Shown one piece after another: positions 11,136 through 24,735 of a DNA stretch of 27,488 bases. Under the pieces are notes generated by a model. The model saw only the letters and a list, made by a program, of their open reading frames with translations. It was not told where the DNA came from and made no database searches. Both the position numbers and the translations under genes were made by a program. The first letter of the stretch is position 1. Each line of letters opens with the position of its first letter. The DNA comes from an uncultured Dehalococcoidia bacterium. Lineage in GTDB: Bacteria; Chloroflexota; Dehalococcoidia; SM23-28-2. The stretch is taken from positions 1-27,488 of the forward strand of contig CAZSHQ010000001.1 of assembly GCA_964606995.1 (NCBI GenBank), given 5' to 3'.

Positions 11136-11386
11136 TTCCCAGTCGTGAGTGGAAGCCGAGGCCCAGGTCATGCTTCCGGGCTAGGCTTGATCCCAGCCGA
11201 TTCAGCAAGCCAAAGAGCCACACTACGCTTTTTCACCCTCTTTTAACCCCCCAAAGCGCCCCTATTCACCACGAAGCCGGCCCTTTGTTCGTCTTACTTA
11301 GTGAAGGAGGAATAGCAGCGATTTGCTGGGCGCTACCTCAAAGGTTGCCCAGGGTTATGGAAAGTTCCCCCTGGCAGCAGGTTTTA

Positions 11387-11415
11387 CGTAACGAGGAGCC
11401 CTCTTCTCGCGTCTG
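11387..11415 (+). promoter_or_regulatory. Putative autoregulatory ECF-sigma promoter
   Basis: CGTAAC (11387-11392), 17 nt, CGTCTG (11410-11415). The same motif occurs twice upstream of flp. Confidence 0.65.
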
Positions 11416-11565: not shown

Positions 11566-12156
11566 ATGAACCTCCCTTTCATCGGCAGATCTTCGGCTGT
11601 AGCCGCCGACGAAAAAGAGGGGCGCGCAGAGCATGCGGCTCCCGGCCTCTCTCTGACGGACTTTTCTGCTCGCTACCGCCACTTCTACCCCAAGGTTTTT
11701 GCCTTCGTCTACGGTCGCGTCCAGGACAAAGAAGTGGCCCTGGACCTCGTCTCGGAAGTGTTTGAGAAGGCCTTTTCCAAGGGTTCCTCCCTGCGCTCCG
11801 ATGGAGCCTTTGAGGCCTGGCTATTCACCATCGCCCGCAACGCCGTAGCCAGCCACTGGCGCAAAGAGAAACCGGCAGCCAAGGCCCTGCACAGCGTCGC
11901 CTGGGAGTGGGAGCTCACACAGCATCATCGCGACCCCGAACAGACCCTCCTGGAACGTGAACAGATGGCGATCCTTGTCTATCATGTGCACCAGCTTTCC
12001 CAACGGGAGCAAGAGATCCTCTCTTTGAAGTTCGATGCTGAACTAAGCAATCAGCACATCGCCCGGGTTATGGGGACCAGCGAGGTTAACGTACGGGTTA
12101 CCCTCTACCGGGCGCTGCATAAGCTGCGAGATCGGATGAAGAGTGTGCCACAATGA
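11566..12156 (+). CDS. ECF family RNA polymerase sigma factor
   Basis: sigma2 'DLVSEVFEKAF...AWLFTIARN' and sigma4 'LSQREQEILSLKF...IARVMGTSEVNVRVTLYRAL', with no sigma3. ATGA overlap with the downstream gene. Confidence 0.92.
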   Translation: MNLPFIGRSSAVAADEKEGRAEHAAPGLSLTDFSARYRHFYPKVFAFVYGRVQDKEVALDLVSEVFEKAFSKGSSLRSDGAFEAWLFTIARNAVASHWRKEKPAAKALHSVAWEWELTQHHRDPEQTLLEREQMAILVYHVHQLSQREQEILSLKFDAELSNQHIARVMGTSEVNVRVTLYRALHKLRDRMKSVPQ

Positions 12157-13541
12157 ATGAAGACGAACGCGCCAAGAAGCTCTGCGATGCCATAGACGCC
12201 ATCCTCCAGGGCGAAGAGCCCAAGATGGAGCTGGATGACCAGGAGCTTATTGAGCTCCTGCGCATCGCCCGCTTGCGTCACCAGGCCGGTCAGGCTCTGG
12301 CCAATGTCGGTTTCACCTACCAGGAGCTGCTGCGGCGTGTCCTCCAGGCCCGTATCGTAGCCCGCCAGATGGAGGAGGGCGGTGAGAAAGCTGATGATCC
12401 GCCCCCAGAAGTGAGCAGCATTATGGACGAAGACCCAGGGCAGTTCCTCGACCCCCTGGATCCTGGCTATGGTAAGCTTGTCAACTTCCTGGACTTCCAG
12501 CCCAGGCCGGCGCACGCTGCTCCTCCCGTCCAAGCCACAGCCGTCCACACGCACCCGACCGTCGCCCGCCAGGCCCGGCCGCGAACGCTGATTCCCAGCT
12601 GGTCGCGCCGCAGCGACCGGAGCTCGAAGAAGGCGGAAACCCTTTCCGCTGCCCTCGACCGTCTCCTTTCCAGCCGAAAGCGCACCATCTCGGTGGGCGA
12701 CCCCGACATCGACGAGCTGGTCCAGGTAGCCCAACTGCGTCGGTTCGTCGGCCAAAGCCTGGCCGCCGCCGGCAGCCCTTACAAGAGACGGCTCTGGACA
12801 GTCCTGCGCATGCGCTTGGCTGCCTCTCTGCGCCGCCAGTCCTACGCTGCCCAGCGGCCCTCCGTCATCGCCGCCGTTGGCCGCTTGTCGTGGCAGCAGG
12901 CAGCAGCGGTAGCCGCTGGCATAGCCCTGTTGCTAGCTGCCCTGGGGCCCCTACCGGCCACAGGCTTCGCCGACCATCCCATAAACCACCTCCTCAACCT
13001 TGTGGAGCAACACGTGGGCGTAGAGGAGGTCGATGGGCCGCCTCCCAACGAAGTGCCCATGACGGCCACTGAGGAGCTTATCGCGCCAGAAGAAGCCGCG
13101 CATCGTTTCGGTCTTGCCGTTCGCCAGCCTTCCTATCTGCCCGAGCGTTTCCAACTGGCTCGCTCGAGCTACCATTCTCAAAGCGGCAGCACCCCCGAGC
13201 AAGGCATGCTCGTCCTCATCTACACCGTCGGTGGCACTGATCCCACAATCCTTGCCGATACAGATCCCCAACTGTTGATATACGAGGAGAGAGCGTCCTC
13301 TAACAGCGTGGCGGTGATGAATGGCCAGGCCGAGGACATAACCCTGGCAGGTCATGTGCCCGGCACCTATGCACCGGCCCTCTGGGCGATGGGGGACCAA
13401 GGGACCCTCGAGGGCACAGACGCCAGCGCTGAAAGCCTGATCTTCGACGACGACGACGTTCGGGTTATCATCACCTACAGGAACGGCGATCAAGAAAAAG
13501 AAGAACTCCTCCGCGTCGCTGAGTCGATGCTAAGCCAATAG
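12153..13541 (+). CDS. Putative anti-sigma factor: two tandem cytoplasmic helical domains, one TM helix, DUF4367-like extracytoplasmic domain
   Basis: Translationally coupled to the ECF sigma. TM at about aa 250-268. C-terminal 'EEAAHRFGLAVRQPSYLPERFQL' is DUF4367-like. Internal repeat at aa 1-68 and 159-222. Confidence 0.7.
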   Translation: MNEDERAKKLCDAIDAILQGEEPKMELDDQELIELLRIARLRHQAGQALANVGFTYQELLRRVLQARIVARQMEEGGEKADDPPPEVSSIMDEDPGQFLDPLDPGYGKLVNFLDFQPRPAHAAPPVQATAVHTHPTVARQARPRTLIPSWSRRSDRSSKKAETLSAALDRLLSSRKRTISVGDPDIDELVQVAQLRRFVGQSLAAAGSPYKRRLWTVLRMRLAASLRRQSYAAQRPSVIAAVGRLSWQQAAAVAAGIALLLAALGPLPATGFADHPINHLLNLVEQHVGVEEVDGPPPNEVPMTATEELIAPEEAAHRFGLAVRQPSYLPERFQLARSSYHSQSGSTPEQGMLVLIYTVGGTDPTILADTDPQLLIYEERASSNSVAVMNGQAEDITLAGHVPGTYAPALWAMGDQGTLEGTDASAESLIFDDDDVRVIITYRNGDQEKEELLRVAESMLSQ

Positions 13542-13583
13542 GAGACCTCAGGACACTTCGTCCTGACAGGCCCAAGACAAGCG

Positions 13584-13625
13584 AAGGGGCGGCCAGCGTG
13601 CTGGCCGCCCCTTTAGTTTATTCTT
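13584..13625. terminator. Strong hairpin terminator between convergent genes
   Basis: AAGGGGCGGCCAGC (13584-13597) / GCTGGCCGCCCCTT (13600-13613), followed by a T-rich tract on plus. Confidence 0.8.
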
Positions 13626-13645: not shown

Positions 13646-13828
13646 TTAGTCTAGGTCCTCCCGCAGCCTTCTCTCCCTCATCATCTCGTACAGTAGATTC
13701 TCCACCACCATCAGCAGCAAAAGGACCGCCCGCTGCTGCCGCCGCGGCAGACGAGCCAAGAACTGCAACAGATCAGCGTCCACCTTCTCGGCCAGAGCAA
13801 CGCGGTTCTCACCGGTGTTGGCCATCAC
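13646..13828 (-). CDS. Small protein homologous to the C-terminal domain of the adjacent XRE regulator (SinI-like)
   Basis: 20/31 ungapped identity to the XRE C-terminus (VDADLLQFLARLPRRQQRAVLLLL vs VDPDLLRFLARLPRNRQRRLLLLL). Starts 2 nt after the XRE stop. Start is GTG 13828 or ATG 13825. Confidence 0.8.
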   Translation of the reverse strand: MMANTGENRVALAEKVDADLLQFLARLPRRQQRAVLLLLMVVENLLYEMMRERRLREDLD

Positions 13829-13830
13829 CC

Positions 13831-14250
13831 CTAATCCCGCCGGCTGGACAACCTGGAATCCTGGCTAGCCGATCCCTCTCCCTCTCCCCCTCCCCGCGTG
13901 TCCTCCACCAGGTGCTCCATGCCCTCCAGCAAGAGGAGCAAACGCCGTTGCCGGTTACGAGGCAGGCGGGCCAGGAAGCGCAGAAGATCCGGGTCCACGT
14001 TGGCCTCATAGCCCTCGTAGACCTGCTTCAGAGTGCGCACCGTCGGGTAGCCAGCGGCCTCGAACAGATCGTCGGCGTCCACGTGTATGGCCTGAGCAAC
14101 CCTAAGGATGACGGCGGCACTGGGATTCCGCACGTCCCCGTTCTCCAACTGAGATAGGTAACCCTGGCTGACAGCAGCCTCACCGGCTAGCTGCCCCTGA
14201 GTAAAACCTATCTCCTCGCGTAGTTCCCGAATCCTTTTGCCTAGCTCCAT
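13831..14250 (-). CDS. XRE/SinR-like helix-turn-helix transcriptional regulator (xre1)
   Basis: 'LGKRIRELRE.G.TQ.QLA..A.VSQGYLSQLE....NPS' HTH_3 pattern plus a C-terminal helical domain. Confidence 0.9.
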   Translation of the reverse strand: MELGKRIRELREEIGFTQGQLAGEAAVSQGYLSQLENGDVRNPSAAVILRVAQAIHVDADDLFEAAGYPTVRTLKQVYEGYEANVDPDLLRFLARLPRNRQRRLLLLLEGMEHLVEDTRGGGEGEGSASQDSRLSSRRD

Positions 14251-14279: not shown

Positions 14280-14308
14280 ATTCTCACCCTTTTTCTCAAA
14301 TTTGTCAA
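14280..14308 (-). promoter_or_regulatory. Leftward sigma70-type promoter (xre1 and mini-gene)
   Basis: On minus: TTGACA (14308-14303), 17 nt, GAGAAT (14285-14280). Confidence 0.45.
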
Positions 14309-14316
14309 TACAACTC

Positions 14317-14345
14317 TTGACAGTAACTCAATATTGATATATTAA
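14317..14345 (+). promoter_or_regulatory. Rightward sigma70-type promoter with palindromic spacer
   Basis: TTGACA (14317-14322) followed by AT-rich TG-a-TATATT/TATTAA (14335-14345). Perfect palindrome TCAATATTGA (14328-14337) lies in the spacer. Confidence 0.6.
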
Positions 14346-14425
14346 TAGGTTGGTTTAGAAGTTCCTTTCAAGAACGGTCTACACCATATACTCGGTAATC
14401 TTGTCCAAAGGAGGTGGTTGAGAGG

Positions 14426-14635
14426 GTGAACAACAAAGCTGACAAGCTCTGCCGCGCCATCGATGACCTTCTCCTGCCTCATCCTCGCAAGACCTTGGTG
14501 GTAGAGCCTGAGGCTCAAGAGTTGCTCCGGCTGGCCCACCTCCGCCGTGAGGCCGGCCGCAGGATTGCTGCCATAGGCGCCTCTCGGCTGGAGAAAAGCT
14601 GGCAACAGCTGGAAGCAACTCTGCGGGTCCGATAG
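14426..14635 (+). CDS. Small stand-alone copy of the anti-sigma cytoplasmic domain
   Basis: SD AAGGAGGTG precedes GTG 14426. Ungapped identity is 24/63 to repeat 1 and 23/63 to repeat 2 of the 12153 protein. Confidence 0.78.
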   Translation: MNNKADKLCRAIDDLLLPHPRKTLVVEPEAQELLRLAHLRREAGRRIAAIGASRLEKSWQQLEATLRVR

Positions 14636-14679: not shown

Positions 14680-15036
14680 ATGAAGATCTGGCGAACGCCG
14701 CTCCTGCTCCTAGTAGCAGCCATTGCCCTCCTGGCGATCGCCGGCGGAGCGCTCCTGCTCCAGTCTTCGGACGAGGCCGAGGCGAAAATCGTCTCCGGCG
14801 ACTCCCTGTCTTGCAGCGCAGTGAGCCCTTCAGGCGACGCGCTTGTCGTCGCTCCTGACTCAGCCGGAACATCTCTGACAACCACTGATACTGCCGCCTC
14901 CTCAGCCCAGTGCTACTTTGCCGGCATTACCAGGTTCCCGAACGGTTGCGGTAGCCAGGACCTCTATGTCTTGAGATACCTGTGCTACGATCCAGCCAAA
15001 GACTGGTTCTACGTAAACTACATGTACTGCATGTAG
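14680..15036 (+). CDS. Small exported Cys/aromatic-rich hypothetical protein
   Basis: Perfect SD AAGGAGGTG. N-terminal MK plus hydrophobic stretch, then A-E-A. Cys at positions 45, 78, 90, 102 and 117. Confidence 0.7.
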   Translation: MKIWRTPLLLLVAAIALLAIAGGALLLQSSDEAEAKIVSGDSLSCSAVSPSGDALVVAPDSAGTSLTTTDTAASSAQCYFAGITRFPNGCGSQDLYVLRYLCYDPAKDWFYVNYMYCM

Positions 15037-15060: not shown

Positions 15061-15090
15061 GGACGGCGGCGCCAGTTCCTGCCGCCGTCC
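15061..15090. terminator. Hairpin between convergent genes (likely bidirectional terminator)
   Basis: GGACGGCGGC (15061-15070) / GCCGCCGTCC (15081-15090), a perfect 10-bp stem. Confidence 0.6.
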
Positions 15091-15458
15091 TACTCTTTCC
15101 CTCCTTGACAATCGTCTTCCACTGCCAGCCGATCGCCCACAGTAGTCTCCGAGCGTGCGGCTGTGCCCGCCGCCACCTCCAGGGCATCCCGGGCCCCCCG
15201 GCCGCCCAAGGCCACCCGAAAGGGCCCGAGCGCCGGCGCCACCTTCACCACCTTGGCCTCCCCATCCAGAAAGATCACATCGATCGGAAAGCGCATAAGG
15301 AAGGTCTGCACCGACGAGCAGGGCGAAAGTAGCAGACCCTCCCCTTCCTTCAGACCGTGGCGCCCCATAAGGCCAACGAGCCGCGCCCAAAAGCTTTCCG
15401 CCTTCCGCGCATGCCCAGCCACGGTCGTTCCCTTGCTGACGTTTACAATCCTGGCCAC
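15090..15458 (-). CDS. DUF192 family protein
   Basis: 'AESFWARLVGLMGR...EGEGLLL.PC.SVQTFLMRFPIDVIFLD...LEV.AG' matches the DUF192 pattern. Last gene of the tad operon. Confidence 0.85.
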   Translation of the reverse strand: MARIVNVSKGTTVAGHARKAESFWARLVGLMGRHGLKEGEGLLLSPCSSVQTFLMRFPIDVIFLDGEAKVVKVAPALGPFRVALGGRGARDALEVAAGTAARSETTVGDRLAVEDDCQGGKE

Positions 15459-15862: not shown

Positions 15863-16765
15863 CTACAGCAGTTGCTCTCCTATCCGGATAACAGCCGGGC
15901 CCAAGATCACCAGCATAAAGGCAGGAAAGATGCAGATGACCAGTGGAAACATCATCTTGATCGGGGCTTCGTGCGCCAACTGCTCCGCCCGCTGCCGTCG
16001 ATGCGTCCGCATCTGGTCCGACTGCACCTTCAGCACATGGCCGATGCTCACCCCTAGCTGTTCGGCCTGGATGATGGCGTTGACAAAGGAGATGAGCTCT
16101 GGCACCCCCGTGCGCTGGCCCAGGTCGCTCAAGGCCTCCCGCCGCAAGCGCCCCATGCCCACCTCTCGCAGCGTCTGCGAAAGCTCCTTGGCCAGAGGAC
16201 CCTTCATCTGCTCACCGATCTTGGCCAGGGCAGCGTCCAGACCCAGCCCCGCCTCGACGCAGGTAGTGATTAGGTCCAGGGCATCGGGCAGGGTCTTGAT
16301 GATCAACCGCTGCCTCGACCGCACCGTTGTCCTCAGCCAGAACAAGGGCAGACTGAAGCCGATGATAGCCATCACCATCAGGCCCAGAAATCCCTGAGTG
16401 CTGATTCCCCCCAGAGTGGCAAGGGCAACGATAGTCAGCCCGGCGAAGAAAGCGATACAGACGGCCCAAAAGGTAACGAAGGTAGTAGCCGTCATAGAAC
16501 TGCCAGCCATGACGAGCGATTTCTGGATGCTAGCTAGGAAGTTGACCGGCAGCATTCCTGCCAGACCCTTACCGAAACCCTGAATAGTGGGGCGCAGTAT
16601 CCTATCGCTGAAGGGCAGGACCAGCTCCGACACGTCGCCGGCGGCCACCTGCCGTCGCAGCGTCTCCATGCGCATCTCCGTCACGCTCGTCCGCGGCCTC
16701 ACAAGGCCCAGCACCAGGAAGGCCACGGCAGCGAAAACGACGAAGGCGATCATCAGTGCAAACAT
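15863..16765 (-). CDS. tadC: Tad pilus inner-membrane platform protein (T2SS F family)
   Basis: 'LPDALDLITTCVEAGLGLDAAL', 'GVSIGHVL..QSDQMR..RRQRAEQLA.EAPIKMMFPL'. Confidence 0.9.
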   Translation of the reverse strand: MFALMIAFVVFAAVAFLVLGLVRPRTSVTEMRMETLRRQVAAGDVSELVLPFSDRILRPTIQGFGKGLAGMLPVNFLASIQKSLVMAGSSMTATTFVTFWAVCIAFFAGLTIVALATLGGISTQGFLGLMVMAIIGFSLPLFWLRTTVRSRQRLIIKTLPDALDLITTCVEAGLGLDAALAKIGEQMKGPLAKELSQTLREVGMGRLRREALSDLGQRTGVPELISFVNAIIQAEQLGVSIGHVLKVQSDQMRTHRRQRAEQLAHEAPIKMMFPLVICIFPAFMLVILGPAVIRIGEQLL

Positions 16766-16771
16766 CTGCTG

Positions 16772-17746
16772 CTACACCTCAATACTCATCATAGAGCGAA
16801 TCAGAAAGATACCCATGACCTCCAGCCCCCCTGCTATGAGGAGCAAGACCTTGCCGACAGTTTCAGTAAATAGAGGGGCCATGTAATCGGGGTTCATGGC
16901 GAACATGATCAGGCCCACGAAGATAGGCAGCGCGCCGATGACAACCCCCGTCATGCGCTGTTGAGCGGTGAGGGTCTTGATCTCTCCCCGAATGCGGTCC
17001 CGTTCCCTTATGGTGTAAGCCACGTTGTCCAGCGTCTGGGCCAGATTGCCCCCGACCGACCTCTGAATAGCGACGGCGGTAACAACCATCTCCATGTCGG
17101 GGCTAGCGATGCGATCAGCCAGAGCCTGGATAGCGACCTCAGCCCCGGCACCCAGGTTCGCATCCTGGAGCATGCGCTTGAGCTCATCCGCCAGCGGTGG
17201 CGATATCTGACGGCTGGCGTATTCGAAACCCTGCAGCAATCCATACCCCGATTTCAGGGAGTTGGAGACCAGGGTGAGCATCTCCTCCAGTTGACCGTTG
17301 ATCTTGGCCTGGCGGCTGCGCCGCCGACGACCCACGTACCAGCGGGGCAAGAAGTAGCCAATCGGAGCCGCCGGCAAAGCGATGAGCCAGTTGCGCGTCA
17401 GCAGGAGAGTCAGCAGAAGGAGAAGCATAGCCACGGCAACCCTGAGGGTCATGTATTCGCCTACCCGCAAGGGAATGCCCGCCCGTTCCAGCGCCAGGAC
17501 TGAGCTCTCCACTTGGCGGCTGCCACCCAGAATGCCAGCGAGGGGGCCCAGCTTGCCGCGATCGGTAGGACGCAACAGCGACTCATCACCGACGCCGCTG
17601 GGGCGACTCGTCTCGCCCCGACTAAGCTCCTCCAGGCGGCGGCTAAGTGCCCCCTGCCCAGAGCCCCGAATCTGAGAAATGCCAATGACAAGCAGCGTTA
17701 CAGTGGCCATCACGGCCACGGCTACTAGAAGCGCCAGCGGTTGCAT
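16772..17746 (-). CDS. tadB: Tad pilus inner-membrane platform protein (T2SS F family)
   Basis: 'LVSNSLKSGYGLLQG', 'IQRSVGGNLAQTLDNVAYTIRER..IRGEIKTLTAQQRMT'. Confidence 0.9.
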   Translation of the reverse strand: MQPLALLVAVAVMATVTLLVIGISQIRGSGQGALSRRLEELSRGETSRPSGVGDESLLRPTDRGKLGPLAGILGGSRQVESSVLALERAGIPLRVGEYMTLRVAVAMLLLLLTLLLTRNWLIALPAAPIGYFLPRWYVGRRRRSRQAKINGQLEEMLTLVSNSLKSGYGLLQGFEYASRQISPPLADELKRMLQDANLGAGAEVAIQALADRIASPDMEMVVTAVAIQRSVGGNLAQTLDNVAYTIRERDRIRGEIKTLTAQQRMTGVVIGALPIFVGLIMFAMNPDYMAPLFTETVGKVLLLIAGGLEVMGIFLIRSMMSIEV

Positions 17747-17750
17747 CGGC

Positions 17751-19130
17751 CTACCACTCCGCTACGTTCTGAAACAAGCCCTCAGGCACAGCAATGCCGG
17801 CCAGGGCGAAGCCTTCGGCGAAGGTAGGACGGATGCCCGTGGACTGCAGCCGCCCCAAAATACGGCCGTGCTCATCGATGCCCTCCTGCTCAAAGCGGAA
17901 GATGTCCTGGAGAGTGACAATCTCCCCCTCCATGCCGCTCACCTCAGTGATGTGGGTTATGCGGCGGCCGCCGTCGCGGAAGCGCGCTATCTGAAGAACA
18001 AGGTGAAGGGCCGACGACATCTGCTCACGGATGGCCCGCATTGGCAGGTCCAGATTGGCCATTAGCACCATGTTCTCCAGCCTGGCCAGAGCATCGCGAG
18101 GCGAGTTAGAGTGAATGGTGCTGAGGGAGCCCTCGTGGCCGGTGTTCATGGCATTGAGCATGTCGAACGCCTCGCCGCCACGCACCTCACCGATGAGGAT
18201 ACGGTCGGGCCGCATGCGCAGGGTGTTGCGCAACAGCTCCCGCTGGGTCACCTCCCCCCGGCCATCCACGTTGGGGGGGCGAGCCTCCAGGCTGATGACG
18301 TGCGGCTGCTGAAGCTGGAGCTCCAGAGGGTCCTCGATGGTCACAATGCGCTCGGAATCGGGAATGAAGGCAGACACGGCGTTGAGAAGGGTCGTCTTGC
18401 CGGTGCCTGTGCCGCCGGAGACCAGGGCATTCAAACGAAGCTCCACACAAGCCCCCAAGAACTGGCCTATTTCGGCGCTGAGGGTGCCCACCTTCACCAG
18501 GTCATCCATGGTCAACTTGCTTCTAAGGAACTTGCGGATGGTCATGGTGGGGCTCTTGGGGGCCAAGGGAGGGATAATAACGTTCACGCGCGAGCCATCG
18601 GCCAGGCGGGCATCCACCATGGGAGAGCTCTCGTCGACGCGCCGCCCCAGGGGAGCGATGATCCGCTCCACAATCTGCATGACATGGTCCACATCGCGAA
18701 AGCGAACGTCGCTCTGATACATGATGCCATCCCGCTCGAAGTACACCTCCTCGGGCGAGTTCACCATCACCTCAGAGATAGACGAGTCGTGCAGCAAGGG
18801 CTCGATGGGTCCCAGACCCACCACCTCATCCACCACCCGGGTGGCCACGGCATCCCGCACCAGGGCGTTCAGAGACTCCCGCCCCAGCAGGGCCTTTACT
18901 GCCTCCTCCACCGCCTGACGCCGCTTGTCAGGAGGCATCGCCTCCAACTTCTCGGCTTCCAGCTCATCGATGAGCCTCTGATGGAAGCGATAGACCAGTT
19001 GCTCTAGTTCCTCCCCCAAACGAGCCGAGCGGCGGGCCGGCGCTGCCACCTGAGAACTAGACTTACCTGGTGGCTGGTCACCGTCATTCTGCTCTGGAAG
19101 TCGTTCAGTTCGCCGGCGCCACTGACTCAT
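17751..19130 (-). CDS. cpaF: Tad pilus assembly ATPase CpaF/TadA
   Basis: Walker A '[12 protein letters not shown]', 'TIEDPLEL', '[18 protein letters not shown]', '[12 protein letters not shown]'. SD AAGGAG. Confidence 0.95.
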
Positions 19131-19142
19131 CTTTCTCCTTCC

Positions 19143-20447
19143 TTATCTGGTCCATTCCTCTGCCGCCGGTGTCGCGGGTACCTCCGACACCGCCTCGGCA
19201 GCCCCTTCCGCGGCGACCCCTGGCTCGGCCTGCGGCTCGCCCTGTGGCCTTCCCAGCAGAGGGATGCGGTCGCCCAGGCGCTCCAGCATGCCCTTGGGCC
19301 GGGAGCGGATGCCGCCAATGGCGTAGGACAGCTCCACAAGGCTCTGAGAGGCTTTGGACTTGGGCTTGGCCGCCACTATGGGCATACCCAACTGCGTGGT
19401 CTGGGAGATGCTACGATCGTAGGGGATTGTCCAGAAGATCTCCTTGCCCAGAACCCGTCGAATATCGACCCGTGTGTCGCGGTGGGCATCGCTGGTGTGG
19501 TTGATCACTATCTTCACCTTCTCCGACGGGAAGGACCAGGAGCGAAGCATCTCCAGGGCCAGGATGGTATCCTTCAGGCTGGCCAGATCGGGAGTGGCTA
19601 TCAGCAGAAGAATGGTGCACATCTCCAGAGCACGAGACACGATGTCGTTGAAGGCACCGGGTGTGTCCAGAAGGACGTAATCGTGGGTGGTGGCCAGGAC
19701 CGACACCATCTTCTCGATGTGGCCGGGGTGGATGCTGTGCCATTCGGATGGCCGAATGGGCGCCGGCAAGATGGCCACGCCAGTGCCATGCGTGTACAGG
19801 CAGGACTGGACGGCCTCGCGATCGATCTCCTCGTCCGGTAGAGCCAGGTCAGAGATGCTGCGGTCGGTGGGCATGTCCATGAGGATGGCCACGTCGCCAA
19901 AGCGGGTGTCCAGGTCCACCAGGGCCACCGATTGGCCCGTCTTCTGCACCAGGGCAGTAGCCAGATTGGTAGCGATGGTAGTCTTGCCGATCCCTCCTTT
20001 GGCCCCGAAGATGGTAACCACCGTCCCGTAGGCCTGGGCCTCCACCTCCCCTGCCAAGCGCTGCTGGCGCCTCTCTTCCTGAGCAAGAGCAGCGTGGATG
20101 GAGCGACCCAGATCCTCCTCCTGCAGAGGAGCGACGAGGTAGTCCTTGACCCCCACCTGCATGGCGCGCCGGATGTAACTAGGGTCGCCGATTGATGAGT
20201 AGGCGATGATCGGCACCTGGGGGAGAACGTCGCCCACTGACTCGAGGGTCTGCAGGGAGCGAGCTATAGGCTCCTCCAGGGCCACCACCACCACCTCAGG
20301 CGTCGTCTCGCGGGCCAGGGTCATGGCCTCCATCCCGTAGCCGGCAGCGCCCATCACAGCGAAGCCTGACAGGGCCAGCATTCGCTGGGTTTCCGCCCGG
20401 CTGGACGGATCCTGGTCGATTATGATTACCTTGGGGTTCCTAGCCAC
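19143..20447 (-). CDS. cpaE: CpaE/TadZ: receiver-like domain plus ParA/MinD ATPase
   Basis: N-terminal REC fold, deviant Walker A 'GAKGGIGKTTIA', 'VDLDTRFGDV'. SD GAGGAGG precedes a GTG start. Confidence 0.88.
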   Translation of the reverse strand: MARNPKVIIIDQDPSSRAETQRMLALSGFAVMGAAGYGMEAMTLARETTPEVVVVALEEPIARSLQTLESVGDVLPQVPIIAYSSIGDPSYIRRAMQVGVKDYLVAPLQEEDLGRSIHAALAQEERRQQRLAGEVEAQAYGTVVTIFGAKGGIGKTTIATNLATALVQKTGQSVALVDLDTRFGDVAILMDMPTDRSISDLALPDEEIDREAVQSCLYTHGTGVAILPAPIRPSEWHSIHPGHIEKMVSVLATTHDYVLLDTPGAFNDIVSRALEMCTILLLIATPDLASLKDTILALEMLRSWSFPSEKVKIVINHTSDAHRDTRVDIRRVLGKEIFWTIPYDRSISQTTQLGMPIVAAKPKSKASQSLVELSYAIGGIRSRPKGMLERLGDRIPLLGRPQGEPQAEPGVAAEGAAEAVSEVPATPAAEEWTR

Positions 20448-20465
20448 CTAAGGCCTCCTCCCGCA

Positions 20466-21341
20466 TTAACGTCCGAAAGGATTGGGAAGGTTAGAAGGCA
20501 AGATCTCAGGGTTGACAATGGCTGGCACCGTTGACTCGTCCGTTTCTCCCACCGGCCGCAACGACAGTTTGAGAACGCCCATCTCCTCCGCCAGGGCCAG
20601 CTTCTGAGCCTCCGCGGGTGTCACTGCCAGGGTCACGTTGGTGGCATCGGGATTGGGGTCGGCGGGATTGGGGAGAACGGGCTGAGATCCCTCACCGGTC
20701 GTGCCGTCGTCGCCCTCCTCAGGCAAGGCCTCAGCCACCTCCTGGGCCACTGCCAGCACCTGCACGTTCTGCAAGACAGTGACCGCCACGTAATCATCAA
20801 AGTCCTCCGAGGACGTGGGGTCGTCCTCCTTGATCCCGTAGAACGTAACATCGAAAACGCCGATGACATCCACGAAGTCCCCGGGCAGGATCAGGCCACC
20901 GGCGCCCGTGACCTCACTCACCTGCACGGACACCGCTCGCTGGTCGGGCGGCACCACATAAGAAAGGGGCAATTCCTCGTCACCCGCCCCCGGCACCTCC
21001 CTGGCGGTTGCCGCCACCTTGCTGCTCAGAATCTGTTCCTCGGCAGCGATAGGCAGACGAGTGACCATGCCAATCAACTGATCAGTGGATGAAAAGGCAT
21101 CCGGATGCACTGCGCTCTCTGCCAGGGACTTCACTTCCACCATTTCAGCCGTGATGCGCACACGAGCGGACATGTCCTCCGTGGCGACCACCACTGGCTT
21201 GGTGGCCGCGGCGCTCGCCTCCCCGTCACCCCCACCCTGGCTGAGGTAGACGTAGACCAGCACCGCGCTAACAAGGCCCAAGAAAAGGGCCACTAATAAG
21301 ACCGCTTTGTTGCTCCTGCCGCCCCCAACGCGATTTCGCAT
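20466..21341 (-). CDS. cpaB: Flp pilus assembly protein CpaB/RcpC
   Basis: N-terminal TM, SAF domain 'VVVATED....RIT.EMV', 'RAVSVQVSEVTGAGGLILPGDFVDV', 'VLQNVQVLAV', 'VTLAVTPAEAQKL'. Start set at ATG 21341. Confidence 0.9.
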   Translation of the reverse strand: MRNRVGGGRSNKAVLLVALFLGLVSAVLVYVYLSQGGGDGEASAAATKPVVVATEDMSARVRITAEMVEVKSLAESAVHPDAFSSTDQLIGMVTRLPIAAEEQILSSKVAATAREVPGAGDEELPLSYVVPPDQRAVSVQVSEVTGAGGLILPGDFVDVIGVFDVTFYGIKEDDPTSSEDFDDYVAVTVLQNVQVLAVAQEVAEALPEEGDDGTTGEGSQPVLPNPADPNPDATNVTLAVTPAEAQKLALAEEMGVLKLSLRPVGETDESTVPAIVNPEILPSNLPNPFGR

Positions 21342-21447
21342 CACAGGTTCCCCCTCATGCCCGCAGCTCTGCCGGCCAGGCAAGCTGCTAACGGGCGCGG
21401 GCCTTCTTCTGCCCGCCCCCTACCTCGAACGTTCGCTCACGACCCGG

Positions 21448-22716
21448 TCATGGGTTCAGCGTCGGCACCAGACGGATGCCGGTCACGAGCTCCCAGCCTA
21501 TCGTTTCGAAAACCGGAGTCAGGTCCCCTCCCTCGGGCTCTTCGAAGTAGTGGTACTCGTCGGTGGCCATGGCCTGCAGGACATCCCGCGCCGGGGCGTC
21601 CTCCCACTCACCGCTGTCGCACCCGCACAGACTTCCGGGTCCCGGATCTTCCACGCCATAGCCAATCGTGTATACCTCGATCCCCAGAGCCTTGGCGTCT
21701 TCCGCCATTTCGACGGCGTGCTCGCAGGGGTTGTAGCTGTCGGGCTCGGGGCCGCACTGACCGTTCTGGCCATCCTCTGGCTGGTTGGCCGCTCCGTCGG
21801 AGAGGAAGATTATCCCCCAGTGCTCGTCGGGCCTGCCGTTGGTCTGCAACTCCTCGGCGGCGGCCCACATCGGATCGCCTAGGTCCGTGCCCACCTGGGA
21901 CGTTTTCAGGCAGCTAATGTTGGCCACCAGCGAGCTGCTCTCGTCCGGCGAGCCGTCGGGGTTCTGATAGTCATCGCTCAGATGGGTGGTCACCCAGCGC
22001 GACTCCGGCAGGTTCGGATAGGGCAGCGGCGGGTTGCACTGCCAACCCCCCGGCCACGACCACCAGCACTTGTGCGGTTCGCCCCAGCAGTCGCTCGAGC
22101 TCTTGGCCGGGCCCAGGGCCGCCAGGCCTACCCGCTGCCACTCCTCGGAGAACACTCCCAGGATGGCCTTAGCCGCGTTCTTGGCGTTCGTCATGTCGCT
22201 GCCGCTCATGCTCTGCGTCCGGTCGAGCACCATCATCACATCCAGCGCCCGGAAAGGAGCGGCGCCACACAGACCACGGCAGCCAGCGGCGGTGGCCGAA
22301 ACCGTGACGTCGTCCAGGCCCAGAAGCGGTGCGAAATTCAGGGGGACGTTGCGCTCAGCGTGAACGACGATGGTATCCCACCTGTCCGCCGACGAGTCGC
22401 AGGCGATCTCGTATTCACTGGTGCAGGTGAAGCTTATGTCCACGCTGTCCCCATCGGTTACATCGACCTCGTTCTTATCGAGCCACTCGTGAGCGTCTGC
22501 CTCAGCCTCGGTCCACGAGTCAGGCAATTTCTGGGCAGCCGCTAGAGCAGCGGCGTCAACAGCCTTCTGGAGCTCGCGCTTCTCATGCATGAACATCCCT
22601 ACGTCCAGCACCAGCGCCGCGAAGCCCAGGATCACTATCATGGCCAGGGTCCCCAGCACCAGGCCTTGACCGAACTCCTGTCGCCAGAGGGAACGCAGTA
22701 GCCTCAATAGCCTCAC
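21448..22716 (-). CDS. tadG: TadG-like pseudopilin with von Willebrand A domain
   Basis: Prepilin-like 'G/QGLVL...AALVLDVG...ELQKAVDAAALAAA' and vWA 'LDVMMVLDRTQSM...GTDLG...IIFLSDG'. Start is GTG 22716 (SD GGAG) or GTG 22725 (overlapping the tadE stop). Confidence 0.8.
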   Translation of the reverse strand: MRLLRLLRSLWRQEFGQGLVLGTLAMIVILGFAALVLDVGMFMHEKRELQKAVDAAALAAAQKLPDSWTEAEADAHEWLDKNEVDVTDGDSVDISFTCTSEYEIACDSSADRWDTIVVHAERNVPLNFAPLLGLDDVTVSATAAGCRGLCGAAPFRALDVMMVLDRTQSMSGSDMTNAKNAAKAILGVFSEEWQRVGLAALGPAKSSSDCWGEPHKCWWSWPGGWQCNPPLPYPNLPESRWVTTHLSDDYQNPDGSPDESSSLVANISCLKTSQVGTDLGDPMWAAAEELQTNGRPDEHWGIIFLSDGAANQPEDGQNGQCGPEPDSYNPCEHAVEMAEDAKALGIEVYTIGYGVEDPGPGSLCGCDSGEWEDAPARDVLQAMATDEYHYFEEPEGGDLTPVFETIGWELVTGIRLVPTLNP

Positions 22717-22721
22717 GCTAC

Positions 22722-23192
22722 TCACTCCAATCGAAAGTCAGCAGTAGAACTCAGGGTGAAGGACTCGCCAACAGTGCCGCCGCTGACCACGCCGACGATG
22801 CCAGCCAGAGGAGTGATCAGTGAGTAATCGTAGCTCACGTCCACCACCACCGACTCCCCCGGCAGACCTTCGGCATTGGTAACAGTGACCTCCAGGTCGT
22901 CCCCTAACGCGCCTGCCGTGTCGCGCACTTTCCCCTCGATGCACTGGTCGAGCGAGCCCTGCCCATAGCAGGGAGAGCCCACCGCGTCAAGGGCAGGATG
23001 CACAGCCCCCAGACGGCCGCCTTCACGCGCCGAGTTGGTGACTGTAATCCAGGCATGGAAAGCCATGCCAAAATCGACAATTGCACAAAGCACTAGAAGG
23101 AAGATGGGCAACACAAGGGCAAACTCCACCAGCGACTGTCCACCTTCCCCCTTGCCTCTGCGTCTGGTGATGCGCTTAAGGATAGCTAGCAT
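22722..23192 (-). CDS. tadE: TadE-like minor pseudopilin
   Basis: 'G/QSLVEFALVLPIFLLVLCAIVDFG...NSAREGGR' TadE signature. Confidence 0.9.
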   Translation of the reverse strand: MLAILKRITRRRGKGEGGQSLVEFALVLPIFLLVLCAIVDFGMAFHAWITVTNSAREGGRLGAVHPALDAVGSPCYGQGSLDQCIEGKVRDTAGALGDDLEVTVTNAEGLPGESVVVDVSYDYSLITPLAGIVGVVSGGTVGESFTLSSTADFRLE

Positions 23193-23218
23193 GGGCTTCC
23201 TCGTGCTTGACTGCTTCT

Positions 23219-23298
23219 GCAGGAGCGTCGCGGCTCAACCCGAGCGCCTGACGGCACATCTGCCTTGGTTAGCCCTCGTTGGACCGCGACACCCCTGC
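23219..23298 (-). other. Intercistronic RNA stem-loop between flp and tadE
   Basis: 15-bp stem (plus 23219-23233 with 23284-23298). Its two imperfect positions are G-U pairs only on the transcribed minus strand. Confidence 0.6.
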
Positions 23299-23321
23299 TG
23301 TTCTGTTTCTACCTGACTGGC

Positions 23322-23510
23322 CTAGCCTCCGAGAGCGGCCGCTATCTCGTCCAGGAAGCCAGCAATGGCCAAACCGATGATCCCCAAAGCACCCATGCAT
23401 ACCACGGCAATGAGGGCCATGATCAGGCCGTACTCGGTTAGGGCCTGCCCCGACTCCGAGCGGAAGCGGGTTACCAGCCCCACGAAAAACTCGCTGATCT
23501 TGCTTAGCAT
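23322..23510 (-). CDS. flp: Flp family type IVb/c major pilin
   Basis: 62 aa with 'G/QALTEYGLIMALIAVV' (E+5, Y+6 Flp motif). SD GGAGG upstream. Confidence 0.92.
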   Translation of the reverse strand: MLSKISEFFVGLVTRFRSESGQALTEYGLIMALIAVVCMGALGIIGLAIAGFLDEIAAALGG

Positions 23511-23570
23511 CGTTCGTTTGTACCTCCATTAGGCTCCTGCTTTTAGCTGCGGGATAGCTTGCAGGTTCAC

Positions 23571-23687
23571 CTAGGTTGTGATAAGAAAGAAGAGACGTCG
23601 GGCCCCGCGCACTCCGGCGTCCGGGGTGGGGATTTGCGGTCCTGCCAGGCCAGCTCTCCTCACCCCGTCCGTGTTTGTTTTTCTCAT
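23571..23687 (-). CDS. Candidate 38-aa upstream ORF in the flp leader (MRKTNTDGVRRAGLAGPQIPTPDAGVRGARRLFFLITT)
   Basis: ATG 23687 to TAG 23571. Perfect SD TAAGGAGGTG (23703-23712) is 15 nt away, an unusually long spacing; an in-frame ATC lies closer. Confidence 0.3.
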   Translation of the reverse strand: MRKTNTDGVRRAGLAGPQIPTPDAGVRGARRLFFLITT

Positions 23688-23765
23688 TCGCCTCTCGATA
23701 TCCACCTCCTTATCTCAGCAATAGCGACAAGCTAGGCTTATCGCCCATCTAGCCTACCTGAAGGT

Positions 23766-23793
23766 TAGACGCCTGAAACAGGATGTTGTTACA
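23766..23793 (-). promoter_or_regulatory. ECF-type promoter P1 of the flp/tad operon
   Basis: On minus: TGTAAC, 16 nt, CGTCTA. Confidence 0.7.
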
Positions 23794-23838
23794 GTTATGT
23801 CCACTTGCCTCCCAAATCCCTCTCGCCTTTCACTTCAA

Positions 23839-23867
23839 TAGACGTATGACACCGCCCTACCGTTACC
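23839..23867 (-). promoter_or_regulatory. ECF-type promoter P2 of the flp/tad operon
   Basis: On minus: GGTAAC, 17 nt, CGTCTA. Confidence 0.62.
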
Positions 23868-24000
23868 TCTCACGCACGAGAGCTCGCGTGTGGCCGCGCC
23901 GTTGCCTCTGCAGGCCCAATGCGCTACCCTGCCTACCAGTGAGCAGACCTACCTTTAGTGAACCAACCCTAACCCTCACCAGGAATCGAAGGGAATCGCC

Positions 24001-24735
24001 ATGCCGATCGTCGCCGCCCTCCTCGGCCTCATAACCGGCCACATACTGGAAGTGCTCCTGGACCGTTTCTACTCCGACGCGCCTCCCGGAGGCCCTCTCG
24101 TCCGCTGCTCGGCCTGCCGTTCCCCTATCCGCCTCCTTCACCTCCTCCCCCTGCTAGGCTACCTCTGGCATCGTGGCCGCTGTCCCGACTGCGACCAGCG
24201 ATTGCCCATTCGCGTCCTCCTCCTGCCGCCGGCCAGCGCCCTCGTGTTCGCCCTTACCGCCCTGGCCAGCGACCAGTGGGGCCCAACGATCCTGGGCGGC
24301 CTGTTCGCCGCTATCTTCCTGGCCCTGATGACCACAGACCTGGAGCGCCGCCTCATCCCCAATCGCATCGTCTACCCCGCCATGCTCCTGGCCATCGCTG
24401 TGTCCTGCGCCTGGCCCGACCGGGGCATAGGACAAACCCTCGCCGGCGGCGGCCTGGCCTTCGCCATCATGCTCATCGTCTACATCGTCTCCCTCGGCCG
24501 CTTCGGCTTCGGCGATGTGAAGATGGCCACTCTCATGGGCTTCGCCGTGGGCTTCCCTGCCGTGACGGTGGGCCTCTTCTTCACGGCCATCAGCGCCGGC
24601 CTGGCAGCCGCGCTCCTGTTGCTCACAGGGGTCATGCGGCGAGGCCAGTACATTCCTTATGGCCCCTTTATCGCCCTGGGAGCCATCATCTCCCTCCTCT
24701 GGGGCGACACCATCATCGACTGGTACACGGGCTAG
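24001..24735 (+). CDS. A24 family prepilin peptidase with N-terminal Zn-binding domain
   Basis: 'RCSAC...GRCPDC' N-domain. Catalytic aspartates in 'TTDLERRLIPN' and 'GFGDVKM'. C-terminal 'IPYGPFIALG'. Confidence 0.9.
   Translation: MPIVAALLGLITGHILEVLLDRFYSDAPPGGPLVRCSACRSPIRLLHLLPLLGYLWHRGRCPDCDQRLPIRVLLLPPASALVFALTALASDQWGPTILGGLFAAIFLALMTTDLERRLIPNRIVYPAMLLAIAVSCAWPDRGIGQTLAGGGLAFAIMLIVYIVSLGRFGFGDVKMATLMGFAVGFPAVTVGLFFTAISAGLAAALLLLTGVMRRGQYIPYGPFIALGAIISLLWGDTIIDWYTG

Follow-up and report, generated by a model that had tools for sequence, protein, structure and literature searches.

A conserved 69-residue protein of uncultured Dehalococcoidia is a free-standing copy of the repeat of a candidate membrane anti-sigma factor

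Small anti-sigma factors and the Dehalococcoidia locus

Anti-sigma factors of class I (RseA, RsiW, RskA, ChrR, zf-HC2) can be detected with profiles and often carry an Hx3Cx2C zinc motif, and those of class II, such as CnrY and NepR, clamp round their sigma factor. RseA and RseB are two separate proteins. The known anti-anti-sigma factors are either of the STAS type (RsbV/SpoIIAA) or of the PhyR type, in which a sigma-like domain is joined to a receiver domain and PhyR mimics sigma. In Bacillus, SinI pairs with the oligomerisation domain of SinR, and SinI-SinR and SlrA-SlrR are systems with anti-repressors derived from the interaction domain of the regulator. The class I anti-sigma domain (ASDI) has been described as a three-helix bundle that binds sigma-4, followed by a fourth helix that binds sigma-2 (PMC7406223). 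NepR and CnrY are very small two-helix anti-sigma factors, NepR being soluble and about 60 aa long (PMC7406223; PMC6101532), and RsbN, the class III anti-sigma factor of the Streptomyces sigma factor sigma(BldN) (PDB 6DXO), uses short N-terminal helices and a long helix (PMC6101532). The published promoter consensus of BldN is CGTAAC-N16-CGTTGA (PMC2375139).

The DNA analysed here (the window) is the whole stretch of 27,488 nucleotides from an uncultured Dehalococcoidia bacterium, and its features are collected in Table 1. Its subject is s69, a small gene encoding a single free-standing (solo) copy of a repeat that is found twice in a 462-aa membrane protein encoded next to a BldN-like ECF sigma factor. 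Literature searches turned up neither this locus type nor the s69 protein, and s69 was compared with each of the systems above. The four helices of the ASDI stand against two in the model of s69, and both repeats of the membrane protein are likewise modelled with two helices. Even at E<=10, no Pfam or NCBIfam match to ASDI, zf-HC2 or RskA was obtained for s69, the 462-aa protein or 41 copies of the domain, and s69 itself contains just one Cys and lacks the Hx3Cx2C motif. With its 69 aa, its solubility and its two modelled helices, s69 resembles NepR and CnrY. However, neither a sequence nor a Foldseek match to them was found, and the helices of s69 are modelled as a hairpin instead of an open clamp. 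It differs from NepR also in that no PhyR-like partner is present in the window and in being a paralogue of the repeat of a membrane protein.

The likeness to the RsbN-BldN pair begins with the sigma factor, which among solved structures is nearest to sigma-BldN and whose predicted promoters resemble the BldN consensus, and extends to its partner, encoded beside it, which crosses the membrane once and has a helical cytoplasmic domain at its N-terminus. RsbN, a membrane anti-sigma factor of idiosyncratic helical fold, likewise combines short N-terminal helices with one long helix, and the target is a secreted surface filament in both cases (predicted to be the flp pilin here, chaplins and rodlins there). 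In contrast, there is no sequence similarity to RsbN, and the tandem repeat and the RseB/LolA-like extracytoplasmic domain belong to the present locus. The RsbN chain of 6DXO was not returned by profile or single-sequence searches of the PDB, nor was there a Foldseek match, and the paper on the RsbN-BldN structure (PMC6101532) describes no free-standing version of the RsbN domain.

As in SinI-SinR and SlrA-SlrR, the only homology of a small protein is to the protein-interaction part of a larger regulator whose gene lies nearby, and the locus moreover holds a pair of XRE regulators, xre1 and xre2, together with s59, a free-standing copy of their tail. The larger relative of s69, however, is a candidate anti-sigma factor and not a DNA-binding repressor, and s69 has no match to Pfam SinI. 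Similarity to the RseA-RseB/MucA-MucB systems and to LolA-like/DUF4367 sensor domains lies in the C-terminal domain of the 462-aa protein and not in s69, and, unlike in the RseA-RseB pair, the sensor-like domain is here fused to the candidate anti-sigma factor. STAS or PhyR-type domains gave no Pfam match, and a two-helix protein of 69 aa is too small for either. By the sequence and structure searches run, s69 appears not to be a member of the class I or class III anti-sigma factors or of the known anti-anti-sigma families, and it has no match to NepR or CnrY.

Table 1. Coordinates of the features discussed in the text
Feature	Position	Strand	Remarks
BldN-type promoter motif	11388..11414	+	GTAAC-N17-CGTCT; upstream of sigma operon
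ECF sigma factor, BldN-like	11566..12156	+	Sigma70_r2 and r4 domains
462-aa single-pass membrane protein, candidate anti-sigma factor	12153..13541	+	start overlaps sigma stop (ATGA)
Repeat 1 of membrane protein	12159..12377	+	residues 3-75
Repeat 2 of membrane protein	12621..12854	+	residues 157-234
s59	13646..13828	-	free-standing copy of XRE C-terminal tail; directly downstream of xre1; likely start ATG 13825
xre1	13831..14250	-	XRE-family HTH regulator with C-terminal tail; divergent from s69
xre1 sigma-70-type promoter	14280..14308	-	TTGACA, 17 nt, GAGAAT; promoter scan
Palindrome TGTCAA-N8-TTGACA	14303..14322	.	back-to-back -35 boxes of xre1 and s69 promoters; candidate XRE operator
Putative s69 sigma-70-type promoter	14317..14347	+	TTGACA (14317-14322), 17 nt, TATTAA; within invariant block TATATTAATA
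s69 Shine-Dalgarno sequence	14408..14416	+	AAGGAGGTG; purine-rich Shine-Dalgarno also in orthologues
s69	14426..14635	+	69-aa soluble single-repeat protein; GTG start, TAG stop
p118	14680..15036	+	118-aa protein; own Shine-Dalgarno, 44 nt after s69; signal peptide or membrane anchor, conserved cysteines
Terminator-like hairpin	15061..15090	+	would end s69-p118 transcript
flp pilin gene	23322..23510	-	62 aa, G/QALTEY motif; predicted sigma target
BldN-type promoter motif	23767..23792	-	GTAAC-N16-CGTCT; 257 nt upstream of flp
Second BldN-type promoter motif	23840..23866	-	GTAAC-N17-CGTCT; 330 nt upstream of flp

The s69 gene and the helical-hairpin repeat family

The open reading frame and the Shine-Dalgarno sequence proposed by the reading made earlier from the sequence alone (the sequence-only reading) were both confirmed, with the GGAGG lying 11 nt from the start codon. 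An alternative GTG start at 14414 falls within the Shine-Dalgarno sequence and receives no support from the orthologues, and in the deeper-branching loci L005-L007 the codon aligned with the start at 14426 is ATG. The homologue search for which that reading had called was run and showed the gene to be conserved: more than 45 clusters of orthologues were obtained, 72-99% identical and nearly all of exactly 69 aa, and the homologue clusters came without exception from metagenome-assembled genomes of Dehalococcoidia (e.g. SM23_28_2, DG_22). Across all related Dehalococcoidia loci that have the gene, its length stays between 67 and 71 codons, and the small reading frame keeps its 69 codons and its position even where the adjacent 462-aa protein is only 39-55% identical. 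The ratio dN/dS (Nei-Gojobori, 78 pairs from 13 loci) had a median of 0.32, with values between 0.11 and 0.60. Long antisense reading frames overlap s69, as might be expected of a chance open frame in GC-rich DNA that is never expressed. This explanation is exceedingly improbable and is effectively refuted by conservation, since length, start codon and Shine-Dalgarno sequence are all maintained at the dN/dS given, and relatives with as little as 36-49% identity share the position and the promoter block. Judged by its conservation, s69 is a real gene under purifying selection.

The highest mean Kyte-Doolittle value over 19 residues of s69 is 0.48 and, therefore, the protein has no transmembrane segment, in agreement with the sequence-only reading. 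Its AlphaFold2 model, built from 41 aligned sequences and with a mean pLDDT of 90, contains two helices only, a short one (residues 2-15) and a long one (28-68), joined by a loop (16-27) and packed as a hairpin. In BLASTP, s69 aligned without gaps to residues 4-58 of the 462-aa protein (22/55 identical, E 1e-8) and to residues 160-218 (22/59 identical, E 6e-9). Over the full length, the ungapped identities to the two repeats are 25/69 and 23/69, and the 24/63 and 23/63 that had been claimed were thus essentially right. The BLOSUM62 scores of these alignments were 95 and 94, against a mean of -1.5, a standard deviation of 7.5 and a maximum of 33 in 300 shuffles. These comparisons confirmed at the sequence level that the homology of s69 to both repeats is far beyond chance.

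In the domain-level comparison, s69 stood at a similar distance from repeat 1 (36%) and repeat 2 (34%), and the solo proteins formed a separate group, whose most distant members still have 37-49% identity to s69. Helix 1 of s69 (KLCRAIDDLL) is nearest to that of repeat 1 (KLCDAIDAIL). The most conserved feature specific to the solo proteins is a loop motif that they have in common, P-R/K-K-T-L/A-V-x-E/D-P-E, which resembles repeat 2 and not repeat 1, RK-T-x-V-x-DP being common to s69 and repeat 2. Since the solo proteins have a group of their own and s69 is about equally far from both repeats, s69 is, by these comparisons, an old accessory component of this locus type that belongs to a separate solo subfamily, and no recent duplicate of a neighbouring repeat. 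It also evolves faster than the repeats and the sigma factor, with a mean pairwise distance of 0.31 compared to 0.25 for repeat 2, 0.21 for repeat 1 and 0.14 for the sigma factor.

In an exhaustive profile search of 1.84 billion representative proteins, the helical-hairpin repeat family comprised 131 clusters at E<=1e-3, and s69 scored 97 bits (E 1e-28) against the profile made from the repeats and the solo proteins. Family members are either membrane proteins of about 400-570 aa, in which one to three copies stand at the N-terminus, or short proteins of 64-90 aa, and the repeats of the membrane protein are the only homologues of s69. The repeat number of the membrane proteins varies: in some a single repeat leads straight into the transmembrane helix, in others repeat 1 is joined by part of a middle repeat, and others have three repeats. 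Repeat 1 alone is shared by all architectures, and it is also the best conserved. The variation is seen, among others, in a 173-aa fragment (P0237) and in family members of about 400-420 aa.

The gene for the 462-aa protein overlaps the sigma gene by the ATGA in all loci examined. In the AlphaFold2 model of this protein, repeat 1 is made of helices 3-18 and 30-75 and repeat 2 of helices 157-173 and 184-234, with a disordered linker (79-156) between them; a transmembrane helix (247-263) is followed by a confidently modelled, beta-rich C-terminal domain. The placement of repeats 1 and 2 relative to each other, and its confidence, are uninformative in this model. For the C-terminal domain, the best interpretable matches in the PDB were to RseB (Foldseek, probability 1.0, E ~1e-2), and one homologue of the 462-aa protein is annotated as DUF4367. 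The predicted layout is that of a membrane anti-sigma factor, and we regard the protein as a candidate anti-sigma factor. In the clade of the window, residues 76-156 (12378-12620) form a disordered, acidic and proline-rich linker in place of the middle repeat of the ancestral 3-repeat protein. Within this linker lies DPLDPGYGKLVNFLDF, a short and strongly conserved motif and a candidate docking site. A 14-bp GC-rich hairpin at 13583-13614, between the convergent 462-aa gene and s59, was called as a terminator on both strands.

Neither Pfam nor NCBIfam assigned s69, the 462-aa protein or the 41 domain copies to an anti-sigma or any other family. The repeat had no family match among PDB sequences in profile or single-sequence searches, and the s69 model, with its pLDDT of 90, gave no Foldseek match to an anti-sigma or other family. 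The name "anti-sigma domain" is therefore drawn from context, namely from the overlapping genes, the membrane topology, the RseB/LolA-like outer domain and the BldN-like sigma factor, from which we infer it. Of the earlier description of s69 as a stand-alone soluble copy of the anti-sigma domain, the soluble single-repeat copy stands, whereas the repeat matches no known anti-sigma family and the rest of the label depends on the context. As modelled, the repeat is a previously undescribed, lineage-specific helical hairpin consisting of a short helix, a conserved loop and a helix of about 40 residues.

Predicted promoters, neighbouring genes and distribution of the solo gene

The best PDB match of the sigma factor was chain A of 6DXO, the sigma-BldN of the RsbN-BldN complex, with an E value of 5e-14 over region 2 only. 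Its best NCBIfam model was TIGR02952 (BldN family), with 116 bits, below the cut-off of 206. The motif GTAAC-N15-19-CGTCT occurs three times in the window where 0.05 occurrences are expected, and its form with spacers of 16 or 17 nt closely resembles the published BldN site CGTAAC-N16-CGTTGA (PMC2375139). The region upstream of the sigma gene has two invariant blocks, GTAAC and GCGTCTGAATAT, arranged as CGTAAC-N17-CGTCTGAATAT, and the arrangement of motifs at the sigma operon and flp is found again in L001 and L003. The sigma factor is predicted from these motifs to drive its own operon and flp. The tandem motifs before flp imply a sigma-dependent pilin gene with a long 5' leader, and in this way they back the sigma-dependent flp promoter that the sequence-only reading had assumed. 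About 25 nt upstream of the -35 element of the sigma promoter, GTTATGGAAA (11354-11363, +) is invariant in 7/7 aligned loci and may be the binding site of a regulator.

No GTAAC-N15-19-CGTCT motif is present upstream of s69, where the conserved elements are sigma-70-like, and the possibility that s69 itself belongs to the sigma regulon was therefore rejected. The 175-nt spacer between xre1 and s69 contains TTGTCAATAC, CTTGACA and, some 15-17 nt further on, TATATTAATA, all of them invariant across seven loci. The putative promoter of s69 was called from conservation because it fails the strict -10 rule of our promoter scan. The architecture of the xre1-s69 promoter region is retained even in the distant loci L009, L025 and L106, which argues that the s69 promoter is of the sigma-70 type. 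The palindrome TGTCAA-N8-TTGACA has one copy in the whole window, with 0 expected by chance; it is invariant in 7 loci and is also found in L025 and L106. Since it contains the -35 boxes of both s69 and xre1, a single XRE dimer could control both genes, and it is plausible that this shared palindrome is the XRE operator of the two. The candidate operator stretch, 14295-14350, combines the palindrome with TATTGATATATTAATA, and a second near-palindrome in the spacer overlaps the -10 region. Solo genes are always divergent from xre1, so that the divergent arrangement noted before holds and comes with a conserved promoter/operator region shared by both genes.

The 59-aa product of s59 corresponds to the tail common to xre1 and xre2 (VDxDLLxFLARLPRxQQRxxLLLL; E 9e-8 against xre2). 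No protein of the locus is better conserved than this one, with 69-97% identity over all locus types and the invariant stretches LLLLMV and ENLLYEMMRERR. Together with the XRE pair it looks like a SinI/SinR-style logic, by analogy. The predicted product of p118 has a hydrophobic N-terminal segment (residues 8-26), an AEA motif and conserved cysteines, is Cys-rich and would be secreted or anchored; it matched no family. Its occurrence was confined to the clade whose membrane protein has two repeats, and in the clade of the window it is predicted to be co-transcribed with s69, from a 5' end near 14352. Absent from the sequence-only reading were p118, the old solo subfamily, the sigma-70-like promoter and s59. 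We considered whether s69 and p118 might form a split anti-sigma factor and rejected this, as p118 has no similarity to the 462-aa protein, no s69-p118 fusion exists among the 131 family clusters, and solo genes are found without p118 in L009, L025 and L106. Between p118 and xre2, most loci have a DUF192 (COG1430) gene (15090-15458, -), but some do not (L022, L024). The Tad/Flp pilus cluster at 15863-24735 is complete and is syntenic across all related Dehalococcoidia loci; it comprises tadC, tadB, cpaF, a CpaE-like ParA ATPase with an N-terminal receiver domain, rcpC, a TadG-like protein (Tad plus VWA or Tad_C domains), tadE, flp and a prepilin peptidase. When the window was scanned against Rfam and for tRNA genes, there were no hits.

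A metagenome scan anchored on the highly conserved 59-aa gene beside xre1 yielded 80 loci. Wherever the membrane protein had two repeats and the sequence on the xre1 side was adequate, the solo gene and p118 were present (19/19 metagenome loci), and the solo gene was likewise found in all covered genome loci of the 2-repeat clade with the linker motif DPLDPGYGKLVNFLDF. With a 3-repeat membrane protein, it was found in 0/11 covered metagenome loci and 0/4 covered genome loci. The link is not strict, however, since in L106 a 3-repeat protein (P0194) occurs together with a solo gene (P0257). In L025, too, the C-terminal fragment of the membrane protein is nearest to the 3-repeat types. As it is absent from many loci of otherwise the same layout, the solo gene is an accessory gene. 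The idea that the solo protein replaces the lost middle repeat was rejected as a rule, L106 having both a 3-repeat protein and the solo gene, and the association of the solo gene with two repeats is best read, from this distribution, as shared ancestry.

Possible roles of s69

Since s69 is a free-standing copy of the repeat in the membrane protein encoded beside the sigma factor, it probably tunes transcription of the pilin gene. We tentatively take it to be a soluble binder of sigma under XRE control, a reading that is the likeliest of those considered but falls short of being probable. The XRE switch would permit expression of s69 from its sigma-70-type promoter, and the protein would then bind sigma in the cytoplasm through a surface that it has in common with repeat 1 of the membrane protein. 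It would be a soluble anti-sigma factor, controlled at the level of transcription and independent of the envelope signal, and could in this way set a threshold or a brake on sigma-dependent transcription of flp. That the repeat and s69 bind sigma, and the sign of the effect, we infer from the locus. Repeat 1, which is likely to be the sigma-binding unit, is universal and the best conserved, helix 1 of s69 is nearest to it, and small anti-sigma factors with two or three helices, NepR and CnrY in class II and RsbN in class III, offer a precedent (PMC7406223; PMC6101532). However, the repeat matches no known anti-sigma family in sequence or structure, and the solo-specific loop is like repeat 2 and not like repeat 1. 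In addition, s69 evolves faster than the repeats and sigma, which is not what a tight shared interface with sigma would predict, and it is an accessory protein whose gene is lacking in the adequately covered 3-repeat loci (0/15). A positive role, for instance in coupling the pilus machinery to pilin expression, would fit the regulatory logic equally well. Such a role is the essence of the main rival to the soluble sigma-binder, according to which s69 is a decoy: by analogy with the known anti-repressors, it would pair with the tandem repeats of the membrane protein, disturb the arrangement that holds sigma and thereby set sigma free. We regard this as rather unlikely, and with the same low expectation s69 would be a new kind of anti-anti-sigma factor, a microprotein that mimics the tandem repeat of the anti-sigma factor itself, and neither sigma, as PhyR does, nor a STAS partner such as RsbV, and that intercalates into its cytoplasmic repeats. 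A SinI-like XRE switch would then turn on pilin transcription together with the Tad machinery, and such a positive coupler would be sensible given that xre2 precedes the machinery genes and BldN-type promoters precede the pilin gene. The usual packing of tandem helical hairpins against one another also speaks for a decoy, as do the homology of s69 to nothing but an interaction-type helical module of a larger regulator, the resemblance of the design to SinI-SinR, and the faster evolution of s69 relative to the repeats and sigma. Read off the sequences, s69 is basic and repeat 1 acidic, a further point for pairing to which the repeat 2-like RK-T-x-V-x-DP loop may be added, and s59, as the second free-standing domain copy of the locus, suggests that a dominant-negative design recurs. 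The decoy gains nothing, however, from the AlphaFold model, in which the placement of repeats 1 and 2 is uninformative, and the notion of a solo protein that supplies the lost middle repeat fails as a rule because of L106.

The same locus bears on the proposal that s69 is an extra repeat provided in trans, a subunit that stabilises the sequestration of sigma and is needed for full inhibition without being inhibitory alone. The number of repeats in the membrane protein does vary from 1 to 3, and the solo gene accompanies the 2-repeat form in all covered metagenome and genome loci. Nevertheless, shared ancestry of one clade explains this association, L106 combines three repeats with the solo gene, and the promoters of s69 and of the sigma operon are of different types and do not suggest a fixed stoichiometry, so that we consider such a co-anti-sigma subunit improbable. 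The partner of s69 might also be sought outside the sigma module, in XRE1, XRE2 or s59 or, in the clade of the window, in p118, for which it could be, e.g., a cytoplasmic escort. The divergent pairing with xre1 is invariant over all solo genes, and in a crude mirror-tree analysis the partial correlations of s69 were highest with s59 (0.47) and p118 (0.29), compared to 0.19 with sigma and about 0 with the repeats, values which were obtained from 26 loci that are not phylogenetically independent and do not amount to significant evidence. But neither the XRE tail nor p118 is related in sequence to s69, which is homologous only to the repeats of the membrane protein, and no p118 lies beside the solo genes in L009, L025 and L106; a partner of this sort is, in our view, improbable.

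What is new in this locus is the repeat module together with its separately regulated free-standing copy, the regulation by an ECF sigma factor and an anti-sigma factor being known as such. The system occurs only within a narrow group of uncultured Dehalococcoidia, and the parts of the locus are small and soluble enough for heterologous tests. If our reading is true, an undescribed helical-hairpin repeat would be the cytoplasmic module of a candidate anti-sigma factor for a BldN-like ECF sigma factor outside the Actinobacteria, and a free-standing paralogue of this module would be wired to a separate XRE-type switch. With s59 as the free-standing copy of the XRE tails, the same design would then occur a second time in the locus, which would be a compact and testable example of how regulators give rise to small, trans-acting versions of their own interaction domains. 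It would further connect two layers of regulation over the Tad pilus in the abundant uncultured Dehalococcoidia of sediments.
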